Origin: Escherichia phage vB_EcoP-101120B1-2
Reading direction: 5' to 3' (one strand)
Sequence record: MZ234022.1
Length of the DNA: 39,845 nt
This document shows positions 3,322 through 23,622 of the stretch, piece by piece (position 1 is the first letter of the stretch; every line of letters starts with the position of its first letter). A program made the position numbers and the translations under genes. Under the pieces are notes generated by a model. The model did not search any database, was not told the DNA's origin, and saw only the letters and a program-made list of their open reading frames with translations.

Positions 3322-3367
3322 TGGAGGCGCTACCATAGGTCTCCATTTAAATCACAAAGGAGGCATA

Positions 3368-5899
3368 ATGTCCACGATTACACAATTCCCTTCAGGAAAC
3401 ACTCAGTACAGGATTGAGTTCGACTACCTAGCCAGAACGTTTGTTGTTGTTACGCTGGTGAATAGCTCTAACCCTACCCTGAACCGTGTACTGGAAGTTG
3501 GTCGAGATTACCGATTCCTTAATCCAACGATGATTGAGATGTTGGTTGACCAATCAGGTTTCGACATAGTTCGTATTCACCGTCAGACTGGAACTGACTT
3601 AGTGGTAGATTTCAGGAATGGCTCAGTGTTGACAGCTAGTGACCTGACCAATTCAGAGCTTCAGGCTATCCATATTGCAGAAGAAGGTCGAGACCAAACG
3701 GTTGACTTAGCGAAGGAATATGCCGATGCTGCTGGTAGCTCTGCTGGCAACGCTAAGGATAGCGAGGACGAAGCACGCCGAATCGCTGCGAGTATCAGGG
3801 AAGCTGGTCTAATTGGCTATATTACCCGTCGCTCCTTCGAGAAAGGCTACAACGTTACAACATGGAGCGAGGTCCTGCTATGGGAAGAGGATGGTGATTA
3901 TTACCGCTGGGATGGTACGCTTCCAAAGAACGTTCCTGCTGGTTCAACTCCTGAAACTTCCGGTGGGATTGGATTAGGTGCGTGGGTTAGTGTTGGTGAT
4001 GCTGCTTTAAGAAGTCAGATTTCAAACCCGGAAGGGGCAATACTCTACCCGGAATTGCAGATGGCAAGATGGCGTGATGAGGGTGATGTTCGAGGCTGGG
4101 GTGCTAAAGGGGATGGTGTAACAGATAGTACGGAGAATATAGCTGCTTCACTAAGTTCTCAAAAAGCTGTCGTAGCATCAGAAGGTGTATTCTCTAGTTC
4201 TGGTATTAATAGTAATTACTGTAACTTAGACGGTAGGGGTAGTGGCGTGCTAAGTCACCGTTCCAGTACAGGTAACTACTTAGTATTTAACAATCCACGT
4301 ACAGGTCGCTTAAGTAATATTACGGTAGAAAGTAATAAGGCGACTGATACAACTCAGGGACAGCAGGTATCTCTTGCGGGTGGAAGCGATGTTACTGTAA
4401 GTGACGTTAACTTCTCAAACGTTAAAGGTACTGGTTTCAGTTTAATCGCATACCCTAATGATGCGCCACCTGATGGACTTATGATTAAAGGCATTCGAGG
4501 TAGCTATTCCGGCTATGCTACTAATAAGGCAGCCGGATGCGTACTTGCTGACTCCTCAGTTAACTCCCTCATAGATAACGTTATTGCTAAGAACTACCCT
4601 CAGTTCGGAGCAGTAGAGTTGAAAGGTACAGCCAGTTACAACATAGTCAGTAATGTTATAGGGGCAGATTGCCAGCATGTAACTTACAACGGCACTGAAG
4701 GGTCAATAGCTCCTTCTAATAACATTATAAAGGGGGTGATGGCTAATAACCCTAAGTATGCAGCGGTTGTTGCAGGCAAAGGAAATACTAACTTAATCTC
4801 AGACGTGCTCGTAGATTACTCAACTTCTGATGCTAGCCAGGCTCATGGCGTTACCGTAGAAGGGTCTGATAACGTCATAAATAATGTGCTTATGTCAGGA
4901 TGTGATGGTACTAACTCTTTAGGACAAAGGCAGACTGCTACAATTGCACGCTTTATAGGTACAGCTAATAACAACTATGCGTCTGTATTTCCTAGCTACA
5001 GTGCTACAGGTGTTATTACTTTCGAATCCGGCTCTACCCGTAACTTCGTAGAGGTAAAACACCCTGGCAGGAGAAACGACCTTCTCAGTTCTGCTAGTAC
5101 TATTGACGGTGCAGCTACTATTGACGGCACTAGTAATAGTAACGTAGTGCACGCACCTGCCTTAGGGCAGTACATAGGTAGTATGTCAGGTAGGTTCGAA
5201 TGGTGGATTAAGTCCATGTCACTCCCTTCAGGCGTTCTTACTTCTGCTGATAAGTACAGAATGCTTGGGGATGGTGCTGTGTCATTAGCTGTAGGTGGTG
5301 GTGCATCTTCTCAAGTTCGACTATTTACTTCTGATGGTATTTATCGGACAGTGTCCCTCACCAACGGCAACGTGCGTCTTCCTACCAGTAGCACAGGTTA
5401 TTTGCAGTTAGGTTCTAATGCAATGACCCCAGATAGTACTAATACATACGCATTAGGTTCCGCAAGTCGAGCATGGTCTGGCGGTTTTACTCAATCAGCA
5501 TTCACTGTTGTCTCAGATGCTAGGGATAAAACAGAGCCTCTTAATATCTCAGATGCTTTACTGGATGCTTGGTCTGAAGTTGACTTTGTGCAGTTTCAGT
5601 ACTTGGACCGAATTGAGGAGAAGGGTGCAGACTCAGCTAGATGGCACTTCGGCATCATCGCTCAGCGAGCTAAGGAGGCCTTCGAACGTCACGGTATAGA
5701 TGCACATCGCTATGGCTTCCTGTGCTTCGACAGTTGGGATGATGTATACGAGGAAGATGCCAATGGCTATCGTAAACTGATTACACCAGCAGGTTCCCGC
5801 TACGGTATTCGTTACGAGGAAGTACTGATATTAGAGGCTGCGTTGATGCGGCGTACTATTAAGCGTATGCAGGAAGCATTAGCTGTTATGTCTAAGTGA
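3368..5899 (+). CDS. Tailspike protein (gp17 homolog): T7-like N-terminal adaptor domain, pectate-lyase-like beta-helix depolymerase body, C-terminal intramolecular chaperone domain
   Basis: SD CAAAGGAGG upstream of ATG. N-terminus EFDYLARTFVVVTLV resembles T7 gp17 FEYLARKFVVVTLI. Central motif WGAKGDGVTDSTENIAAS is typical of pectate-lyase-3 beta-helix tailspikes. C-terminus carries SDARDK (Ser716, Lys721) in the spacing of the peptidase S74 Ser-Lys dyad. Confidence 0.85.
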   Translation: MSTITQFPSGNTQYRIEFDYLARTFVVVTLVNSSNPTLNRVLEVGRDYRFLNPTMIEMLVDQSGFDIVRIHRQTGTDLVVDFRNGSVLTASDLTNSELQAIHIAEEGRDQTVDLAKEYADAAGSSAGNAKDSEDEARRIAASIREAGLIGYITRRSFEKGYNVTTWSEVLLWEEDGDYYRWDGTLPKNVPAGSTPETSGGIGLGAWVSVGDAALRSQISNPEGAILYPELQMARWRDEGDVRGWGAKGDGVTDSTENIAASLSSQKAVVASEGVFSSSGINSNYCNLDGRGSGVLSHRSSTGNYLVFNNPRTGRLSNITVESNKATDTTQGQQVSLAGGSDVTVSDVNFSNVKGTGFSLIAYPNDAPPDGLMIKGIRGSYSGYATNKAAGCVLADSSVNSLIDNVIAKNYPQFGAVELKGTASYNIVSNVIGADCQHVTYNGTEGSIAPSNNIIKGVMANNPKYAAVVAGKGNTNLISDVLVDYSTSDASQAHGVTVEGSDNVINNVLMSGCDGTNSLGQRQTATIARFIGTANNNYASVFPSYSATGVITFESGSTRNFVEVKHPGRRNDLLSSASTIDGAATIDGTSNSNVVHAPALGQYIGSMSGRFEWWIKSMSLPSGVLTSADKYRMLGDGAVSLAVGGGASSQVRLFTSDGIYRTVSLTNGNVRLPTSSTGYLQLGSNAMTPDSTNTYALGSASRAWSGGFTQSAFTVVSDARDKTEPLNISDALLDAWSEVDFVQFQYLDRIEEKGADSARWHFGIIAQRAKEAFERHGIDAHRYGFLCFDSWDDVYEEDANGYRKLITPAGSRYGIRYEEVLILEAALMRRTIKRMQEALAVMSK
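5516..5896 (+). other. Predicted auto-cleaved C-terminal intramolecular chaperone domain of the tailspike (residues 717-843); cleavage predicted after Ser716
   Basis: SDARDK motif with Ser and Lys five residues apart, followed by a roughly 125-aa domain, as in the endosialidase/T5 L-shaped fibre chaperone domains (recalled from literature). Confidence 0.5.
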
Positions 5900-6123
5900 G
5901 TAATACTGGTACGGTATTTCGCACAATGAAATCGTTGAACACACTGACGAGGAGGGTAATGTCACTACTACGGAAGAACCTGTATACACCGAGGTGGTTA
6001 TTCACGAAGAGGGTGAGGAGTGGGGGTGTTCGGCCTGACGGAATTTTCTTTGCTGAAGCCGCTTATCAGAGAAGAAAACTGGAAAGAATCGAAGCCAGAC
6101 TTTCTGCTCTTGAACAGAAGTAA
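5896..6123 (+). CDS. Hypothetical basic protein between tailspike and holin; start uncertain (GTG 5896, ATG 5926 or ATG 5959)
   Basis: ORF from the track. Arg/Lys-rich with a C-terminal coiled-coil-like segment (RRKLERIEARLSALEQK). No well-spaced SD for any candidate start; T7 has no gene here. Confidence 0.25.
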   Translation: MSNTGTVFRTMKSLNTLTRRVMSLLRKNLYTPRWLFTKRVRSGGVRPDGIFFAEAAYQRRKLERIEARLSALEQK

Positions 6124-6428: not shown

Positions 6429-6688
6429 CGCAGATGGACTTAGAGAAGTTCCTCTTGATGCTGGATACTGAACGTGCTAGACTCATGCTGCAAGACCTGC
6501 GGGATGACTCTAAGCGTTCACCTCAGCTTTACAACGCCATTGAGAAGCTACTGGCTCGTCACAACTTCGTGCTAAGTAAGGTGTCTGTGGACGAGAAGAC
6601 GCTGGCTGATATGGAGGCCCTGAACGCAGAGTACGATAAGGTGCTTTCAGCGACTGAGGATAATGACACCGGGTATGGCGTTCAATAA
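6425..6688 (+). CDS. Terminase small subunit / DNA maturation protein A (gp18 homolog)
   Basis: 87 aa at the T7 gene 18 position; FLLMLDTERARLMLQDL...SPQLYNAIEKLLARH resembles T7 gp18 ITFLEMLDTAMAQRMLADL...SPQLYNAINKLLDRH. Confidence 0.85.
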   Translation: MTQMDLEKFLLMLDTERARLMLQDLRDDSKRSPQLYNAIEKLLARHNFVLSKVSVDEKTLADMEALNAEYDKVLSATEDNDTGYGVQ

Positions 6689-6692
6689 GTGT

Positions 6693-6736
6693 TAGACTCA
6701 AGGTCATTACTATATGTAGTGGCCTTTATGGTTAAC
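6693..6736 (+). promoter_or_regulatory. Conserved RNA hairpin, late family copy 1 (candidate RNase III processing site, T7 R18.5 position)
   Basis: TAGACTCAAGGTCAT...GTGGCCTTTATG shared with 16336..16379 and 23562..23602. Stem AAGGUCA/UGGCCUU (one G-U) is conserved while the loops differ. Confidence 0.45.
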
Positions 6737-6789
6737 ACTAACTAGTGGAGGAGACTCTACGTGAAATCTGATAAACCGGGAGGGCAACT

Positions 6790-9523: not shown

Positions 9524-9546
9524 ACTTAACTATCACTATAGGGAAG
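9524..9546 (+). promoter_or_regulatory. Phage RNA polymerase promoter near the right genome end (phiOR-like), CTTAACTATCACTATAGGGAAG
   Basis: Core ACTATCACTATAGG, downstream of the gene 19 stop. Confidence 0.7.
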
Positions 9547-10121: not shown

Positions 10122-10310
10122 TCTCACAGTTCAAGAACATCAAGTCTCCCCCATAGGCCTCTTTCAGTCCAGACCAAAGGCCCTACCCCAGTCTATCATA
10201 AGGTTGGACCGATGGTCAAGACTTCAGGTCAACGATAGGTTGTGGCTATGGCTTAGGGAAGGACGATAGGTTGGGACTATGGGTCTGTCTTTGAGTCTCT
10301 ATCTGTATCA
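10122..10310. repeat. Predicted direct terminal repeat / concatemer junction region (present once in this circular assembly); genome left end predicted near 10122
   Basis: TCTCACAGTT...CCCCCATAGG...GTCTGTCTTTGAGTCTCTATCTGT resembles the T7 left end TCTCACAGTG...CCCCCATAGGGGG...GTTTGTCTTTGGGTG...CCCTATCTGTTACAGTC as recalled. Boundaries are approximate. Confidence 0.3.
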
Positions 10311-10381: not shown

Positions 10382-10507
10382 ATCGACCTACGGTTAATAG
10401 ACACAAGGATATAGACTTAAGGTCTAATACATGTTAGTCAAAGACTATATCCTCTTAGTCACTATGGGGCCGACGATAGCTTAATCAATATTATTTAAGA
10501 TTACCTA

Positions 10508-10536
10508 TTGACTACAGGTCCAGACTATGGCTTAAT
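10508..10536 (+). promoter_or_regulatory. Host sigma70-type early promoter (T7 A1-like): -35 TTGACT, 17-bp spacer, -10 CTTAAT
   Basis: TTGACT at 10508-10513 and CTTAAT at 10531-10536; downstream ACGACACGGCAAC resembles the T7 A1 transcribed region ACACGGCGAA. Confidence 0.45.
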
Positions 10537-10648
10537 AGCTTCCGTCAACACGACACGGCAACAACCGGATAGTGAAGACGCCGGGTCATCCCGGTTAAGT
10601 AGACAGCCTGATAAGTCATACGAACAACAGGCAGATGACAGAAAGTAG

Positions 10649-10678
10649 TTGACAAGATGTACCGACTTAAAGTAGTAT
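10649..10678 (+). promoter_or_regulatory. Host sigma70-type early promoter (T7 A2/A3-like): -35 TTGACA, 18-bp spacer, -10 TAGTAT
   Basis: GTAGTTGACAAGATGTACCGACTTAAAGTAGTATGTACCACATC resembles T7 A3 TTGACAACATGAAG...TACGATGTACCACATG. Confidence 0.45.
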
Positions 10679-10790
10679 GTACCACATCAACACGAAACAA
10701 CGGTGACGACCAACACTGAAACGGTCTACCTGAAGTCCTCTGACTGAAGGGAATGCTCTTTAACAATCTGGATAAACTCTTAATGTGCGC

Positions 10791-12468: not shown

Positions 12469-12662
12469 GTCTTGCACTATTGATAGCCATAGGCTATGGA
12501 CTTATCGCATACGTGCTGGTGAGAGACATCAACAAGGCACGTAAAGTCTATAAATTCAACTATGTACGTATGGTCCGCTGGACTGTACGTCAACCTAACG
12601 GACGATTCCTGCGCAATTTAGCGAACGTCTGGGATATAGCAACTCTTGGGAGCAAACTGTAA
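12465..12662 (+). CDS. Hypothetical early membrane protein (65 aa), N-terminal TM segment
   Basis: MSLALLIAIGYGLIAYVLV then basic tail; translationally coupled to its neighbours. Confidence 0.45.
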   Translation: MSLALLIAIGYGLIAYVLVRDINKARKVYKFNYVRMVRWTVRQPNGRFLRNLANVWDIATLGSKL

Positions 12663-12988
12663 TGAACAAGTCATACGGGATTAATCTGGTACACTCTATG
12701 GACGCAGAAATGAACATGTTAAGCCTACTGGCTACCGGGTATCGTCACGGAACGTCAAGTCACACCGCACGTCAACAGCAGGAGAGGGACCGTGTACTAC
12801 AGGCGCGACTCAGGGCAGAGGGCCATAAGTCCGAACTGATGTGTCTGGCGTATGGCGGACGACCGATCACTGACGATGGTAAACTTCTGGTATCAGGCTG
12901 GAAGGCGATAGACCAACGGTCAACCATCAAGCACACGACTCACGGTGACTTCAGCCGTCTCCACGCTAACCCACTGATATGCAAGTGA
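12662..12988 (+). CDS. Hypothetical early protein (108 aa), last gene before the RNA polymerase gene
   Basis: ORF at the position T7 uses for gene 0.7, but far too short to be the 359-aa kinase and no kinase motifs seen. Confidence 0.5.
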   Translation: MNKSYGINLVHSMDAEMNMLSLLATGYRHGTSSHTARQQQERDRVLQARLRAEGHKSELMCLAYGGRPITDDGKLLVSGWKAIDQRSTIKHTTHGDFSRLHANPLICK

Positions 12989-12993
12989 TTATG

Positions 12994-13016
12994 ACTTAAC
13001 TATCACTATAGGACTC
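12994..13016 (+). promoter_or_regulatory. Phage RNA polymerase promoter immediately upstream of the RNA polymerase gene, CTTAACTATCACTATAGGACTC
   Basis: Core ACTATCACTATAGG; +1 about 75 nt upstream of the gene 1 ATG; leader contains direct repeats AAGTGAAAGAC x2. Confidence 0.7.
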
Positions 13017-13085
13017 AAGGTCTAAGACTCCAAGTGAAAGACCAAAGAGACTTTAAGTGAAAGACTAATAACAAGGACTTTAAGT

Positions 13086-15767
13086 ATGAGCGTCATCTCT
13101 ATTGACAAACACGACTTCTCTGATGTGTCGAACGCCATTGAGCCGTTTAACCTGCTGGCTGACCACTACGGGCAAGACCTTGCAGTCAAACAGCTTCAGC
13201 TTGAGCATGAGGCCTACACTGAAGGTGAGCGACGTTTCATCAAGAACCTTGAGCGTCAGACCGAGCGAGGGGAACTGGCAGACAATCAGGTCGCCAAGCC
13301 TTTGATGCAGACTCTGGTTCCTAAGATTGCGCAAGCCGTCAAGGAGTGGCACGAAGGTCCAGACGGGAAGCTGTCAACCTCACGTCCGAGCGTAGCGTTC
13401 ACCATGTTAAGCACTGAAGAGAAGGCCGTCAAGGACCGCTCTCTTCGCATCTCCTGCGAGTCTGCTGCGGTTATCATACTGAAGGTCATCCTCTCCAAGC
13501 TGGTCAAGCCTGAAGGTATACCGATTACACCGATGGCCTCCGCGATAGGTCGCACACTTGAGGATGAAATCCGATTCGGTCGCATTCGTGACAAGGAGAA
13601 GGAGCACTTCAAGAAGGCGATAGCTGATAACCTGAACAAGAGAGCCGGGGCATCATACAAGAAAGCCTACATGCAAGCGGTCGAGACATCCATGCTGGAG
13701 CAAGGCCAACTAGAAGATGCGTGGGGAACTTGGAGTCCGACCGAGGCTGTCCACGTTGGAATCAAGATGCTGGAGATTGTCATACAGTCAACACAACTGG
13801 TCAAGCTTAAGCGTTACGGTGCTGGCAATGCAGCGGCTGACGTTGAGATGGTCCACCTGTCAGACTTCTGGGTCAAGAAGATGGCACAACGAGGATTCAG
13901 CCTTGCGGGTATCGCCCCAGTCTACCAGCCTTGCGTCGTTCCGCCTAAGCCGTGGACTGGTGTCGTAGGCGGTGGGTATTGGGCCAAAGGTCGAAGACCA
14001 TTGCCACTGATTCGCTTAGGGTCTAAGTCTGCGGTAGCACGTTATGAAGACGTATACATGCCTGAAGTCTATGAAGCTGTGAATATCATCCAGAATACAC
14101 CTTGGAAAGTGAACAAGAAGGTATTGGACGTGGTGAACAGGGTCGAGAAGCTGAACAACACGCCTATTAATGACATCCCTCAGATGGAACCGCTGAAGCC
14201 TGAGGACTATGCTGGTGAAACCGAGGAGGAACTCAAGGCATGGAAGAAGGCTGCTGCTGGTATCTATCGCCGCGAGAAGGCCAGACAGTCACGCAGATTA
14301 TCACTGAGCTTTATCGTTAACCAAGCAAACAAGTTCTCTCAGTTCAAGGCCATCTGGTTCCCGTACAACATGGATTGGCGAGGTCGTGTCTACGCTGTCC
14401 CGATGTTCAACCCTCAGGGTAACGACATGCAGAAGGGGCTCCTGACTCTGGCAGTCGGCAAGCCTATTGGTGCTGACGGTTTCAAATGGCTGAAGGTCCA
14501 CGGTGCAAACTGTGCGGGTGTCGATAAAGTCACCTTCGATGAGCGCATCAAGTGGGTGGAAGACAACCACGAAAACATCATGGCTGCTGCTAAGGCACCG
14601 ATGGATAGCATTGAGTGGTGGGGCAAGTTAGACTCTCCGTTCTGCTTCCTAGCGTTCTGCTTCGAGTATGCTGGCGTAATGCACCACGGCTTGTCTTACT
14701 CCTGCTCGCTGCCGATAGCGTTCGATGGGTCCTGCTCTGGGATTCAGCACTTCAGCGCTATGCTTCGCGACCACATCGGTGGACATGCAGTAAACCTGAC
14801 GCCATCCGGTAAGGTCCAAGACATCTACCGCATCGTGTCTGACCGCATTGAGGAGGAGCTTAAAGTCCTACTGGTTAACGGTACGGACAACGAGATGGTA
14901 ACTCACGAGGACAAGAAAACTGGTGAGATTACCGAGCGTCTCAAGCTGGGGACACGAGAGCTTGCCCGTCAGTGGCTGACCTACGGTATGTCACGAAAGG
15001 TCACTAAGCGTTCGGTCATGACTCTGGCCTACGGGTCGAAAGAGTACGGCTTCGCAGACCAAGTTTACGAGGACATCGTGATGCCAGCGATTGACTCAGG
15101 GTCTGGCGCTATGTTCACTGAACCAAGCCAAGCAGCTCGCTTCATGGCTAAGATGATTTGGGAAGCTGTGAGTGTGACCGTAGTTGCTGCGGTTGACGCG
15201 ATGAAATGGCTTCAGGGTGCTGCCAAGCTGCTTGCTGCTGAAGTGAAGGACAAGAAGACTGGAGAAATCCTGAAGCCTTGTCTTCCGGTACACTGGGTCA
15301 CACCTGATGGTTTCCCTGTCTGGCAGGAATACCGAAAGAAGGACACCACTCGTCTGAACCTGATGTTCTTAGGGTCATTCAACCTTCAGCCTACCGTCAA
15401 CAAAGGCACGAAGAAAGAGCTGGACAAGCACAAGCAGGAGTCAGGCATTAGCCCGAACTTCGTCCACTCACAAGATGGTAGCCACCTCCGCAAGACTGTA
15501 GTCCACACGCACCGCAAATATGGCGTGATGTCATTCGCAGTGATTCACGATAGCTTCGGGACCATCCCGGCTGACGCTGAGTATCTGTTCCGTGGAGTCC
15601 GTGAGACGATGGTCGAGACCTACCGCGACAACGATGTGCTGCTTGACTTCTACGAGCAGTTTGAATACCAGCTTCACGAGAGCCAGAGAGACAAGTTGCC
15701 TGAGCTTCCTAAGAAAGGTAAACTGAATATCGAAGACATCTTGTCTTCAGACTTTGCATTCGCTTAA
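13086..15767 (+). CDS. Single-subunit DNA-dependent RNA polymerase (gp1 homolog)
   Basis: 893 aa, collinear with T7 RNAP (883 aa): RFGRIRD, FQPCVVPPKPWTG, AIWFPYNMDWRGRVYAV, FNPQGNDM, DGSCSGIQHFSAMLRD, VTKRSVMTLAYGS, FVHSQDGSHLR, IHDSFGT, C-terminal DFAFA. Confidence 0.98.
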   Translation: MSVISIDKHDFSDVSNAIEPFNLLADHYGQDLAVKQLQLEHEAYTEGERRFIKNLERQTERGELADNQVAKPLMQTLVPKIAQAVKEWHEGPDGKLSTSRPSVAFTMLSTEEKAVKDRSLRISCESAAVIILKVILSKLVKPEGIPITPMASAIGRTLEDEIRFGRIRDKEKEHFKKAIADNLNKRAGASYKKAYMQAVETSMLEQGQLEDAWGTWSPTEAVHVGIKMLEIVIQSTQLVKLKRYGAGNAAADVEMVHLSDFWVKKMAQRGFSLAGIAPVYQPCVVPPKPWTGVVGGGYWAKGRRPLPLIRLGSKSAVARYEDVYMPEVYEAVNIIQNTPWKVNKKVLDVVNRVEKLNNTPINDIPQMEPLKPEDYAGETEEELKAWKKAAAGIYRREKARQSRRLSLSFIVNQANKFSQFKAIWFPYNMDWRGRVYAVPMFNPQGNDMQKGLLTLAVGKPIGADGFKWLKVHGANCAGVDKVTFDERIKWVEDNHENIMAAAKAPMDSIEWWGKLDSPFCFLAFCFEYAGVMHHGLSYSCSLPIAFDGSCSGIQHFSAMLRDHIGGHAVNLTPSGKVQDIYRIVSDRIEEELKVLLVNGTDNEMVTHEDKKTGEITERLKLGTRELARQWLTYGMSRKVTKRSVMTLAYGSKEYGFADQVYEDIVMPAIDSGSGAMFTEPSQAARFMAKMIWEAVSVTVVAAVDAMKWLQGAAKLLAAEVKDKKTGEILKPCLPVHWVTPDGFPVWQEYRKKDTTRLNLMFLGSFNLQPTVNKGTKKELDKHKQESGISPNFVHSQDGSHLRKTVVHTHRKYGVMSFAVIHDSFGTIPADAEYLFRGVRETMVETYRDNDVLLDFYEQFEYQLHESQRDKLPELPKKGKLNIEDILSSDFAFA

Positions 15768-16314: not shown

Positions 16315-16337
16315 CCTAAACTATCACTATAGGCTTA
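16315..16337 (+). promoter_or_regulatory. Phage RNA polymerase promoter (phi1.1 position), CTAAACTATCACTATAGGCTTAG
   Basis: Core motif, intergenic. Confidence 0.75.
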
Positions 16338-16379
16338 GACTCAAGGTCATGACTCAAAGTCGTGGCCTTCATGATTAAC
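16336..16379 (+). promoter_or_regulatory. Conserved RNA hairpin, late family copy 2 (candidate RNase III site, R1.1 position)
   Basis: TAGACTCAAGGTCAT...GTGGCCTTCATGATTAAC; same stem as copies at 6693 and 23562. Confidence 0.45.
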
Positions 16380-16410
16380 CCTAAATAAACACTACTGGAG
16401 ATTTAACCGT

Positions 16411-18122: not shown

Positions 18123-18181
18123 CGTCAACCCAGTGGTCTTAGGACTGCTGGGTTTCTTTGCTTCTGGGCCACCAGCTAGAC

Positions 18182-21525: not shown

Positions 21526-21542
21526 ACTATCACCTTAGGGAT
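21520..21542 (+). promoter_or_regulatory. Phage RNA polymerase promoter variant (phi3.8/4 position), CTAAACTATCACCTTAGGGATG
   Basis: Core with two substitutions (CACCTTAGG), probably weaker. Confidence 0.5.
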
Positions 21543-21588: not shown

Positions 21589-21667
21589 GTCTCCATAGCT
21601 CAAACGGTAGAGCGGTGGGTCGTGATGGCCTATTGCGATTAGGGTTCGAATCCCCGTGGAGACGCCA
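21589..21667 (+). tRNA. tRNA-like element: canonical acceptor stem, D-arm, T-arm and 3' CCA, but a non-canonical anticodon region (possible degenerate tRNA or tRNA-like processing signal)
   Basis: GTCTCCA (21589-95) pairs perfectly with TGGAGAC (21657-63), followed by G and CCA. D-arm GCTC-AAACGGTA-GAGC. T-arm TAGGG-TTCGAAT-CCCCG with one A-C mismatch. No 5-bp stem with a 7-nt loop and U33 could be folded in the intervening 26 nt. Confidence 0.4.
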
Positions 21668-23393: not shown

Positions 23394-23558
23394 TTGCTAA
23401 GAAAACTTAAAGCTCGCTACCATCGGTTCATGTACAAATGGTGGAGCGATGAAGCAACCTGCCTGTCGAACATTCTGGGAGACCAGCGGTTCAACTCTGA
23501 GGCATGGAAGAAAGCTAACCGGAAGTTCATGTATCACTTCTTGCGTACAGACTTCTAG
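23394..23558 (+). CDS. Small hypothetical protein (about 54 aa), gp4.x-like by position; TTG start inferred
   Basis: Strong SD AAGGAGG 7 nt upstream of TTG at 23394; in-frame alternative ATG at 23430; the track ORF starts at GTG 23361 inside gp4. Confidence 0.35.
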   Translation: MLRKLKARYHRFMYKWWSDEATCLSNILGDQRFNSEAWKKANRKFMYHFLRTDF

Positions 23559-23561
23559 GTC

Positions 23562-23602
23562 TAGACTCAAGGTCATTCATAGCGAGTGGCCTTTATGATT
23601 AG
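23562..23602 (+). promoter_or_regulatory. Conserved RNA hairpin, late family copy 3 (candidate RNase III site, R4.7 position)
   Basis: TAGACTCAAGGTCATTCATAGCGAGTGGCCTTTATGATTAG; stem AAGGUCA/UGGCCUU. Confidence 0.45.
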
Positions 23603-23622
23603 ACTAAAGCGGAGGATTAACC

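Follow-up and report, generated by a model that had tools for sequence, protein, structure and literature searches.

In described relatives of the phage analyzed here, public records already place a phage promoter directly ahead of gene 1, the gene for the phage RNA polymerase (RNAP). The EcoDS1 record (NC_011042) annotates a 'promoter phi' before gene 1 at 2244–2266, in a set that also comprises phi1.1-type, phi1.6, phi2.5, phi4, phi6.5, phi9, phi10, phi13, phi17 and phiOR promoters, and the record of the Caroctavirus CR8 (NC_023548) marks a 'predicted promoter' at 3356–3378. With the site annotated in these two GenBank records and contained in the 2005 genome of K1F (NC_007456, 2475–2492), the gene 1 promoter is real, ordinary for the genus and already known, and is not a discovery of this study. 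A 2026 Kayfunavirus paper lists a promoter set that includes it; in papers on SH3-5, Hafnia phage Ca, Ro45lw and IMM-002, promoters come up in generic terms only, and the Ro45lw record annotates other promoters and omits this one. We found no Kayfunavirus transcript mapping in the searchable literature.

T7 is organized differently at this point. Its record has no T7 promoter adjoining gene 1, and the 0.7/1 junction holds the RNase III site R1 and the minor E. coli promoter C, with R1 at the place homologous to that of the promoter described here. A first-pass annotation of our sequence had stated that T7 gene 1 is transcribed by host polymerase only. That statement stands as far as an adjacent T7 promoter is concerned, but it is simplified, because the T7-RNAP promoter phiOL (at 405) lies 2.8 kb upstream of gene 1, ahead of the host promoters and of all early genes, and transcription of gene 1 by phage polymerase via phiOL is possible in principle.

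The window, meaning the whole stretch of DNA analyzed, is the 39,845-nucleotide record MZ234022.1 of Escherichia phage vB_EcoP-101120B1-2, a complete, circularly permuted Kayfunavirus genome of the K1F/EcoDS1 group. Its gene 1 promoter spans 23 bp (12994..13016, + strand, −17..+6) and reads ACTTAACTATCACTATA followed by GGACTC. Within it, the 18-mer CTTAACTATCACTATAGG is found without mismatch at 12995–13012 on the + strand. The promoter lies on the gene-sense strand, begins 6 nt past the upstream stop codon and has GG at +1/+2; the first G of the GG after TATA, at 13011 (+ strand), is the predicted +1 by analogy with T7-group promoters. Both the exact 18-mer and a leader of 75 nt bear out the proposal of the first-pass annotation that a full core promoter with +1 at 13011 stands about 75 nt ahead of gene 1.

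When up to three mismatches are allowed, the 18-mer has 11 copies in the genome, every one of them on the + strand, where shuffled sequence would yield 0.04, and the sites at 9525 and 35859 share the 18-mer of the gene 1 site with no mismatch. In a leave-one-out weight matrix (−17..+6) the gene 1 promoter scores 31.3 bits, with the other ten between 20.6 and 35.6 bits and no genomic position outside the promoters above 15.3 bits. These figures dispose of a chance match as the origin of the site. Consensus, orientation with GG, and co-variation with polymerase specificity, by which a T7-group (Studiervirinae) promoter is judged, are all found at the gene 1 site, which is the leftmost of the 11 phage promoters when counted from the physical genome end at ~10122. 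Its initiating sequence is GGACTC, versus GGGAGA at the capsid-gene promoter; by analogy with the initiating sequences of T7 class II promoters, such a start may confer moderate strength.

The 11 sites pair one-to-one with the 11 annotated EcoDS1 promoters. At the gene 1 site EcoDS1 has an identical 18-mer and leader, and K1F has the exact 18-mer and a leader with one substitution; in both, the ATG lies 75 nt away and the flanking genes are the same. The feature is one and the same in these sister genomes and here, with no difference of substance, although ~150 bp of early DNA in EcoDS1, the third host promoter included, have no counterpart in the genome analyzed here. In CR8 the promoter likewise stands between a 0.38-like gene and gene 1, and its leader, of 87 nt, has ACTTTAAGT repeats; CR8 differs in its promoter sequence (AAGGAAGGTACACTATAGG), in its RNAP specificity loop and in possessing a 0.7 kinase gene.

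The first-pass annotation had treated a promoter in this place as unusual, a view that does not survive comparison with relatives: the position is standard in K1F, EcoDS1 and CR8, and all 21 related IMG/VR loci, whose RNAP identity is 79% or more, have the promoter, with leaders 75–87 nt long. It was also found in all 27 distinct upstream segments, 16 of them metagenome loci, that were gathered by a pattern that excludes the promoter. Among T7/T3/K11-like loci from IMG/VR at 58–64% RNAP identity the count is 0/58, and those 58 loci have the RNase III R1 hairpin in place of the promoter. The position before gene 1 is kept throughout the sampled Kayfunavirus and Caroctavirus; a feature peculiar to MZ234022.1 is excluded by its identity in K1F and EcoDS1 and its universality in the genus sample. 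In the Ro45lw lineage the gene 1 site alone among the promoters has A at −2 (CACTAAAGG), which could make it weaker.

The sequence of the site also follows the specificity of the polymerase. The genome analyzed here and K1F have ACTAT at −12..−8 together with an RNAP loop of the N..N..Q type (here RLNLMFLGSFNLQ, from alignment with T7-like RNAP). In GW1 all promoters, including the gene 1 site, read (A/T)TAAACCCTCACTATAGG, with ACCCT at −12..−8, and the RNAP loop carries D and R as in T3 (RLDL..FRLQ; D..R..Q); in CR8 all promoters, the gene 1 site among them, read AAGGAAGGTACACTATAGG, and the loop again differs. The gene 1 site thus matches its own genome's promoter type in all three cases, and its change in step with the other promoters in GW1 and CR8 argues that it has been kept functional.

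Gene 1 itself (13086..15767, + strand) encodes a single-subunit RNA polymerase of 893 aa (Pfam RNA_pol, 1.4e-106, and RPOL_N), with the Shine-Dalgarno sequence AAGGA at 13073–13077, 8 nt ahead of the ATG at 13086. Upstream of the promoter is an early ORF of 108 aa (12662..12988, + strand), which is the equivalent of the EcoDS1 gene labelled 0.38 and gave no match in a Pfam search. Scanning identified two sigma-70-type host promoters on the + strand, TTGACT...TTAATA at ~10509–10538 and TTGACA-18-TAGTAT at 10649–10678, homologous to EcoDS1 469–505 and 609–647, both of which carry the annotation 'host RNAP promoter'. Past the ligase gene, an early terminator (18127..18164, + strand), at the same relative place as the EcoDS1 TE, closes the host-RNAP early unit to which gene 1 belongs. 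No terminator-like site was found between 9300 and 18126, along the path from the host promoters through the phage promoter to gene 1.

We consider it probable that the site is a functional promoter for the phage's own RNAP, the leftmost of 11, set behind the last of the small early genes and ahead of gene 1, and that it renders gene 1 self-amplifying. The earliest gene 1 mRNA would come from host RNAP working from the sigma-70 promoters close to the left end; newly made phage RNAP would then also start at 13011 and transcribe its own gene and those downstream. Expression would amplify itself and would go on after the homologue of gp2 shuts off the host polymerase, and later brakes may come from the gp3.5 amidase/lysozyme homologue and from competition by stronger late promoters. 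Both partner genes are encoded, as a gp2-type RNAP inhibitor (3e-20) and an Amidase_2 lysozyme homologue (7.7e-17). Because a full cognate promoter stands upstream and no terminator-like site precedes gene 1, the self-amplifying loop proposed by the first-pass annotation is a reasonable inference, and the layout is that of an autogene: own promoter upstream, no terminator between, and the Shine-Dalgarno AAGGA in place. Judged from sequence, positive autoregulation of gene 1 by its own promoter is plausible; initiation at 13011 in vivo, and a quantitative effect on polymerase level, are what we infer from it. The extra output from the phage promoter could be small, since the host promoters already serve gene 1.

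The leader (13011..13085, + strand) is A-rich, and its direct repeats, reported by the first-pass annotation as two motifs present twice each, are real. AAGTGAAAGAC occurs at 13032..13042 and 13055..13065 and GACTTTAAGT at 13049..13058 and 13076..13085 (all + strand), each with only two copies in the whole genome; the second GACTTTAAGT copy follows the Shine-Dalgarno AAGGA and adjoins the gene 1 ATG. Of CTTTAAGT there are four copies genome-wide, two of them in the gene 1 leader. The leader also contains ACTTTAAG, which resembles the T7 gene 10 leader. It occurs only four times on the + strand, two of these in the leader, and so is not a general signal in the genome; a role as a genome-wide translational-enhancer motif was rejected. 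Our preferred reading of the leader repeats is a degenerate copy of an RNase III-type hairpin element, together with a ribosome-binding region that has been duplicated in part. GACTCAAGGTC (13012–13022) is the 5' half of an RNase III-type element that is intact elsewhere in the genome; the leader shares only this half with three intact hairpins of that type.

Folding and covariation tests gave no support for the repeats as a regulatory structure. A weak irregular hairpin (13003..13060, + strand) joins UCACU of the promoter core to AGUGA in the second repeat; only read-through RNA made by the host RNAP is able to form it. The leader has fold z-scores of 0.68 and −0.20 and no covariation; over phage-initiated and read-through RNAs z runs from +0.68 to −1.3, no better than shuffled sequence, whereas the three intact RNase III-type elements reach −2.1 to −4.6. 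RNAalifold on 10 leaders returned −3.9 kcal/mol with 0 compensatory pairs. In an alignment of 16 distinct leaders, which represent three lineages only, 92% of cells are compatible with the hairpin pairs and almost all are invariant, and pair counting on the same leaders gave one double change and a covariation score below that of shuffles. An Rfam search at the gathering threshold found nothing in the leader. A T7-type RNase III site is a stable, conserved, irregular hairpin of ~50–60 nt with lower stem, internal loop and upper stem, and folding did not reveal one in the leader; with stability not significant, no covariation among these leaders and no Rfam match, an RNase III site or structured leader was discarded.

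Other readings of the locus bear on what the promoter and its leader are for. The promoter could be functional but selected as a substitute for phiOL, serving as a left-end promoter and secondary replication origin, or as an entry point for rapid internalization driven by the polymerase and for transcription of the class II region, with transcription of gene 1 incidental. EcoDS1 has no annotated phiOL-type promoter, and the gene 1 promoter is leftmost here because the left end lacks one too, holding only a degenerate TCACTATGGG remnant (10459–10468) that falls below the top 16 weight-matrix positions. T7 promoters with A/T-rich DNA after them act as origins, and the A-rich leader resembles the DNA that follows such promoters. 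We nevertheless hold this account to be unlikely: the fixed spacing of 75–87 nt to gene 1 in all lineages points to a link with that gene, no feature specific to origins turned up at the promoter, and the promoter at 16332 would already be inside the cell once polymerase exists, which would leave little entry advantage. That downstream site, the phi1.1 equivalent (16315..16383, + strand, +1 at 16332), has an intact RNase III-type hairpin behind it (z = −2.7), and both it and the gene 1 cassette have AACTATCACTATAGG and GACTCAAGGTC. This likeness, with the hairpin half degenerate at gene 1, is what would favor a non-functional relic or chance match, for instance a duplicate, now decaying, of the promoter-plus-hairpin cassette located after gene 1. 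Such an origin has next to no chance of being right, given the expectation of 0.04 sites per genome and perfect conservation in all relatives examined; co-variation with polymerase specificity in GW1 and CR8 effectively refutes it, as relics would not be re-tuned.

We give slightly more, though still very little, credence to the promoter and leader acting in read-through RNA as the genus version of T7 R1, with the promoter match secondary or overlapping and the repeats supplying the 3' arm. The R1 hairpin of T7/T3/K11-like relatives sits at exactly the same junction, the leader opens with GACTCAAGGTC, the conserved half of the three intact elements, and the UCACU–AGUGA hairpin is predicted here, in GW1 and in Ro45lw, where 11 bp of it form a perfect inverted repeat (TATCACTAAAG/CTTTAGTGATA). 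The instability relative to intact elements and the invariant, uncompensated pairs described above count against it, and it leaves the tracking of polymerase specificity at −12..−8 unexplained. A combined scheme, which we regard as distinctly improbable, is that an ancestral R1 before gene 1 became a promoter-in-a-hairpin in Kayfunavirus and Caroctavirus. In transcripts that host polymerase reads through the site, the promoter core would be paired with the AAGTGA repeat, and phage-initiated transcripts would begin within the 5' arm, where the hairpin cannot form. If so, gene 1 mRNAs made early and those made by the phage polymerase itself would be unlike in processing, stability or translation, and a built-in switch would be added to simple positive feedback. 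The self-amplifying promoter remains our preferred account.

The gene 1 promoter of K1F-like phages is a real, genus-level departure from the T7 textbook scheme. It places the polymerase gene in both the host-transcribed early unit and the first phage-transcribed unit, a dual membership that should alter when the polymerase is made and the maximum its synthesis can reach, and is relevant to modelling or re-engineering K1F-like phages and to the use of K1F polymerase/promoter pairs in circuits. In Pseudomonas phage LUZ100 (phi1; PMC10134795) and Vibrio phage phiA318 (phi-A8; PMC4099482), a phage promoter directly ahead of the RNAP gene has been interpreted by the authors as positive feedback or autoregulation. 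Both are distant Autographiviridae whose promoter sequences are unrelated to the one here; in LUZ100 the loop has a temperate-like context and a proposed gating by a MarR-like repressor, and in phiA318 a kinase gene also lies downstream of the promoter. SP6 was set aside as a precedent, having no SP6-type promoter upstream of its RNAP gene and its first at 6118. The same circuit logic was reportedly engineered by Dubendorff and Studier in 1991 as a T7 'autogene', with gene 1 cloned behind a T7 promoter. That construct is synthetic and plasmid-borne and is tolerated only with lac repressor and lysozyme, whereas the arrangement here is natural and works in a cell already committed to lysis.

The gene for the phage's own single-subunit RNA polymerase, gene 1 (13086–15767; 893 aa; Pfam RNA_pol 1.4e-106, RPOL_N 1.1e-14), is directly preceded by a phage-type promoter. 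The 18-mer CTTAACTATCACTATAGG is found at 12995–13012 with 0 mismatches, the first G of its GG is position 13011, and a 75-nt leader runs from that G to the ATG. Eleven copies of this 18-mer occur at ≤3 mismatches, all on the + strand, where shuffled sequences give 0.04. With a leave-one-out weight matrix spanning −17 to +6, the gene 1 promoter scores 31.3 bits and the other ten 20.6–35.6 bits; the top non-promoter position on either strand scores 15.3 bits. Its initiating sequence is GGACTC and that of the capsid promoter GGGAGA, a difference that hints at class II-like strength. The leader holds two pairs of direct repeats: AAGTGAAAGAC, at 13032 and 13055, and GACTTTAAGT, at 13049 and 13076, neither of which occurs elsewhere in the window. 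The first-pass annotation, which had described this promoter, its start, its distance of about 75 nt from gene 1, and the repeats, is thus confirmed in every detail.

The genomic setting is that of a complete, circularly permuted T7-like podophage genome (39,845 bp) of the genus Kayfunavirus (K1F/EcoDS1 group). A query of 1 kb spanning the promoter is 100% identical in five Escherichia phage records (vB_EcoP-101120B2 and the vB_EcoP-PM phages PM129, PM131, PM137, and PM139) and 93–97% identical in many phages named Kayfunavirus. By alignment to EcoDS1 and K1F, the genome's physical left end falls near window position 10122, so the gene 1 start lies ~2.96 kb from that end, as it does in relatives. 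The phage genome is linear, with direct terminal repeats (178–190 bp in relatives), and the window is its circularly permuted assembly; the repeat is seen once and was therefore collapsed by assembly. Compared with EcoDS1, ~150 bp of the early control region is missing at 10680–10750, and with it the third host promoter of the EcoDS1 annotation (EcoDS1 764–800). A degenerate promoter-like remnant, TCCTCTTAGTCACTATGGG (10451–10468, +), sits ~330 bp inward of the left end, at about the place of phiOL, the T7 left-end phage promoter, and scores far below real promoters.

A promoter before gene 1 had been set against the T7 scheme, with the proviso that a standard position in close relatives would count against this reading; the position is standard in EcoDS1, K1F, and Citrobacter phage CR8. 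EcoDS1 has a ‘promoter phi’ in its GenBank annotation (2244–2266), directly before gene 1 at 2336, and its promoter-to-ATG sequence is identical to that of the window. The exact 18-mer is also present, at 2475–2492, in K1F, the type species, whose sequence dates from 2005; its spacing is likewise 75 nt, and the leader carries one substitution. All 11 window sites correspond one-to-one to the 11 promoters annotated in EcoDS1 (phi before gene 1, phi1.1-type, phi1.6, phi2.5, phi before gene 4, phi6.5, phi9, phi10, phi13, phi17, and phiOR), among which there is no phiOL. CR8, of the neighbouring genus Caroctavirus, carries an annotated ‘predicted promoter’ between a 0.38-like gene and gene 1. A 2026 Kayfunavirus paper gives the same consensus, CTWAACTATCACTATAGG, in eight copies, one of them at the 3′ end of SPD_007, whose number immediately precedes that of the polymerase gene, SPD_008 (PMC13298934). 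The arrangement is therefore normal, already annotated, and already known in Kayfunavirus and the neighbour genus.

At another of these promoters, that of gene 4 (+1 at 21538), a tRNA-like element (21589–21667, +) precedes the gene 4 ATG (21682). It scores 38.7 bits against the Rfam tRNA model (gathering score 29), and ARAGORN calls a 79-nt tRNA-Ser(tga) with an irregular anticodon arm and encoded CCA. EcoDS1 has no room for the element because the same junction is only ~50 nt there. The stretch matches 118 phage records, 34/118 over at least 80% of its length; among the matches listed, full-match records annotate it as tRNA-Thr, tRNA-OTHER, or tRNA-Pseudo, or leave it unannotated.

Three lineages differ in promoter specificity, and in each the gene 1 site matches the promoters of its own genome. 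These read (A/C)CT(A/T)AACTATCACTATAGG in the window, K1F, and EcoDS1; (A/T)TAAACCCTCACTATAGG at every promoter of the Cronobacter phage GW1 lineage; and AAGGAAGGTACACTATAGG at every promoter of CR8, the gene 1 site included in both cases. Polymerase specificity loops vary in line with promoter type: the window's is RLNLMFLGSFNLQ, that of GW1 is RLDLMFLGTFRLQ, with a T3-like D and a T7/T3-like R, and that of CR8 differs from both. The GW1-lineage polymerase (L083; L017/L041) is 88% identical to the window's. Re-tuning at each change of polymerase preference is not what a chance match or a relic would show, and argues that the gene 1 promoter is kept functional. The GW1 lineage represents a natural promoter-specificity switch within one genus, all its promoters having AAACCCTCACTATAGG in place of AACTATCACTATAGG. 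In the Ro45lw lineage (L084 2400–2475; L011–L013, L019, L020), the gene 1 promoter alone has A at −2, CACTAAAGG; the Ro45lw GenBank record annotates other promoters and omits this one.

The phage-initiated transcript begins with 12 nt, G-GACTCAAGGTC, that form the conserved 5′ half of an element with intact copies at three other + strand sites: 6688–6739, before gene 18.5 (fold z −4.6); 16330–16383, after the phi1.1-type promoter (z −2.7); and 23558–23605, before gene 5 (z −2.1). These intact elements (TAGACTCAAGGTCAT...GTGGCCTTTATGATTA) form stable irregular hairpins of the T7 RNase III-site type, which we take to correspond in position to T7 R18.5, R1.1, and R4.7. The gene 1 leader has a diverged 3′ arm, and its remaining hairpin does not exceed shuffled sequence in stability (z +0.68 to −1.3). 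In read-through RNA, made by host polymerase crossing the promoter, UCACU from the promoter core is able to pair with AGUGA in the second repeat, and in the Ro45lw lineage the promoter/leader pairing is an 11-bp perfect inverted repeat, TATCACTAAAG ... CTTTAGTGATA. An overlap of promoter and processing site before gene 1 would be a possibility of low probability. Across 16 distinct leaders the hairpin pairs are invariant apart from one double change, the covariation score falls below that of shuffles, and RNAalifold finds no compensatory pairs. With stability at shuffle level and 0 compensatory pairs, we read the repeats as the product of hairpin decay together with partial duplication of the ATG-abutting GACTTTAAGT segment, and do not accept them as a demonstrated regulatory structure.

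Near the left end are two predicted sigma-70-type promoters, ~10509–10538 and 10649–10678 (TTGACA-18-TAGTAT); EcoDS1 has three annotated host promoters, and two of them are homologous to these. No terminator-like site was found between the two window promoters and gene 1, so host polymerase would make the first gene 1 mRNA from these promoters; the sole strong terminator-like site is the TE equivalent at about 18127–18154, after the ligase gene. Newly made phage polymerase could then initiate at 13011, giving a transcript whose 75-nt leader is unstructured (fold z = 0.68) and has the Shine-Dalgarno sequence AAGGA 8 nt before the ATG. The result would be positive feedback on gene 1, whose transcription could continue once the gp2 homologue had inactivated host polymerase. 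Both gp2 and lysozyme homologues are encoded in the window. T7 has two limits, inhibition by lysozyme and competition from stronger late promoters; by analogy, the lysozyme homologue and stronger late promoters may limit the loop. A literature search for transcript mapping in Kayfunavirus phages found none, and autoregulation of gene 1 by its own predicted promoter is a reasonable reading of the sequence. Precedents for the concept have been published for other Autographiviridae, namely a positive feedback loop in LUZ100 (PMC10134795) and autoregulation in phiA318 (PMC4099482).

In a protein-guided IMG/VR scan (80 loci around polymerase homologues), the promoter core lies upstream of gene 1 at 21/21 loci with at least 79% polymerase identity, with leaders of 75–87 nt. 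Within 400 nt upstream of gene 1 it is absent from all 20 T7/T3-like loci (62–64% identity) and all 38 K11-like loci (58–59%). A further 16 loci came from a metagenome scan whose pattern was confined to the ribosome-binding site and the first part of gene 1, for a promoter in 27/27 distinct upstream segments in total. In SP6 the polymerase gene is not preceded by a cognate promoter. The T7 record has no T7 promoter adjoining gene 1 but places phiOL at 405, upstream of the entire early region, so the view that T7 gene 1 is transcribed by host polymerase only is a simplification. At the junction itself, T7 and the T7/T3-like and K11-like loci have the RNase III processing hairpin R1 (...CAAGGTC...GGCCTTTATAGATAAAC...) instead, and it is in this R1-to-promoter replacement, together with any quantitative role of the loop, that the residual value of the site lies.
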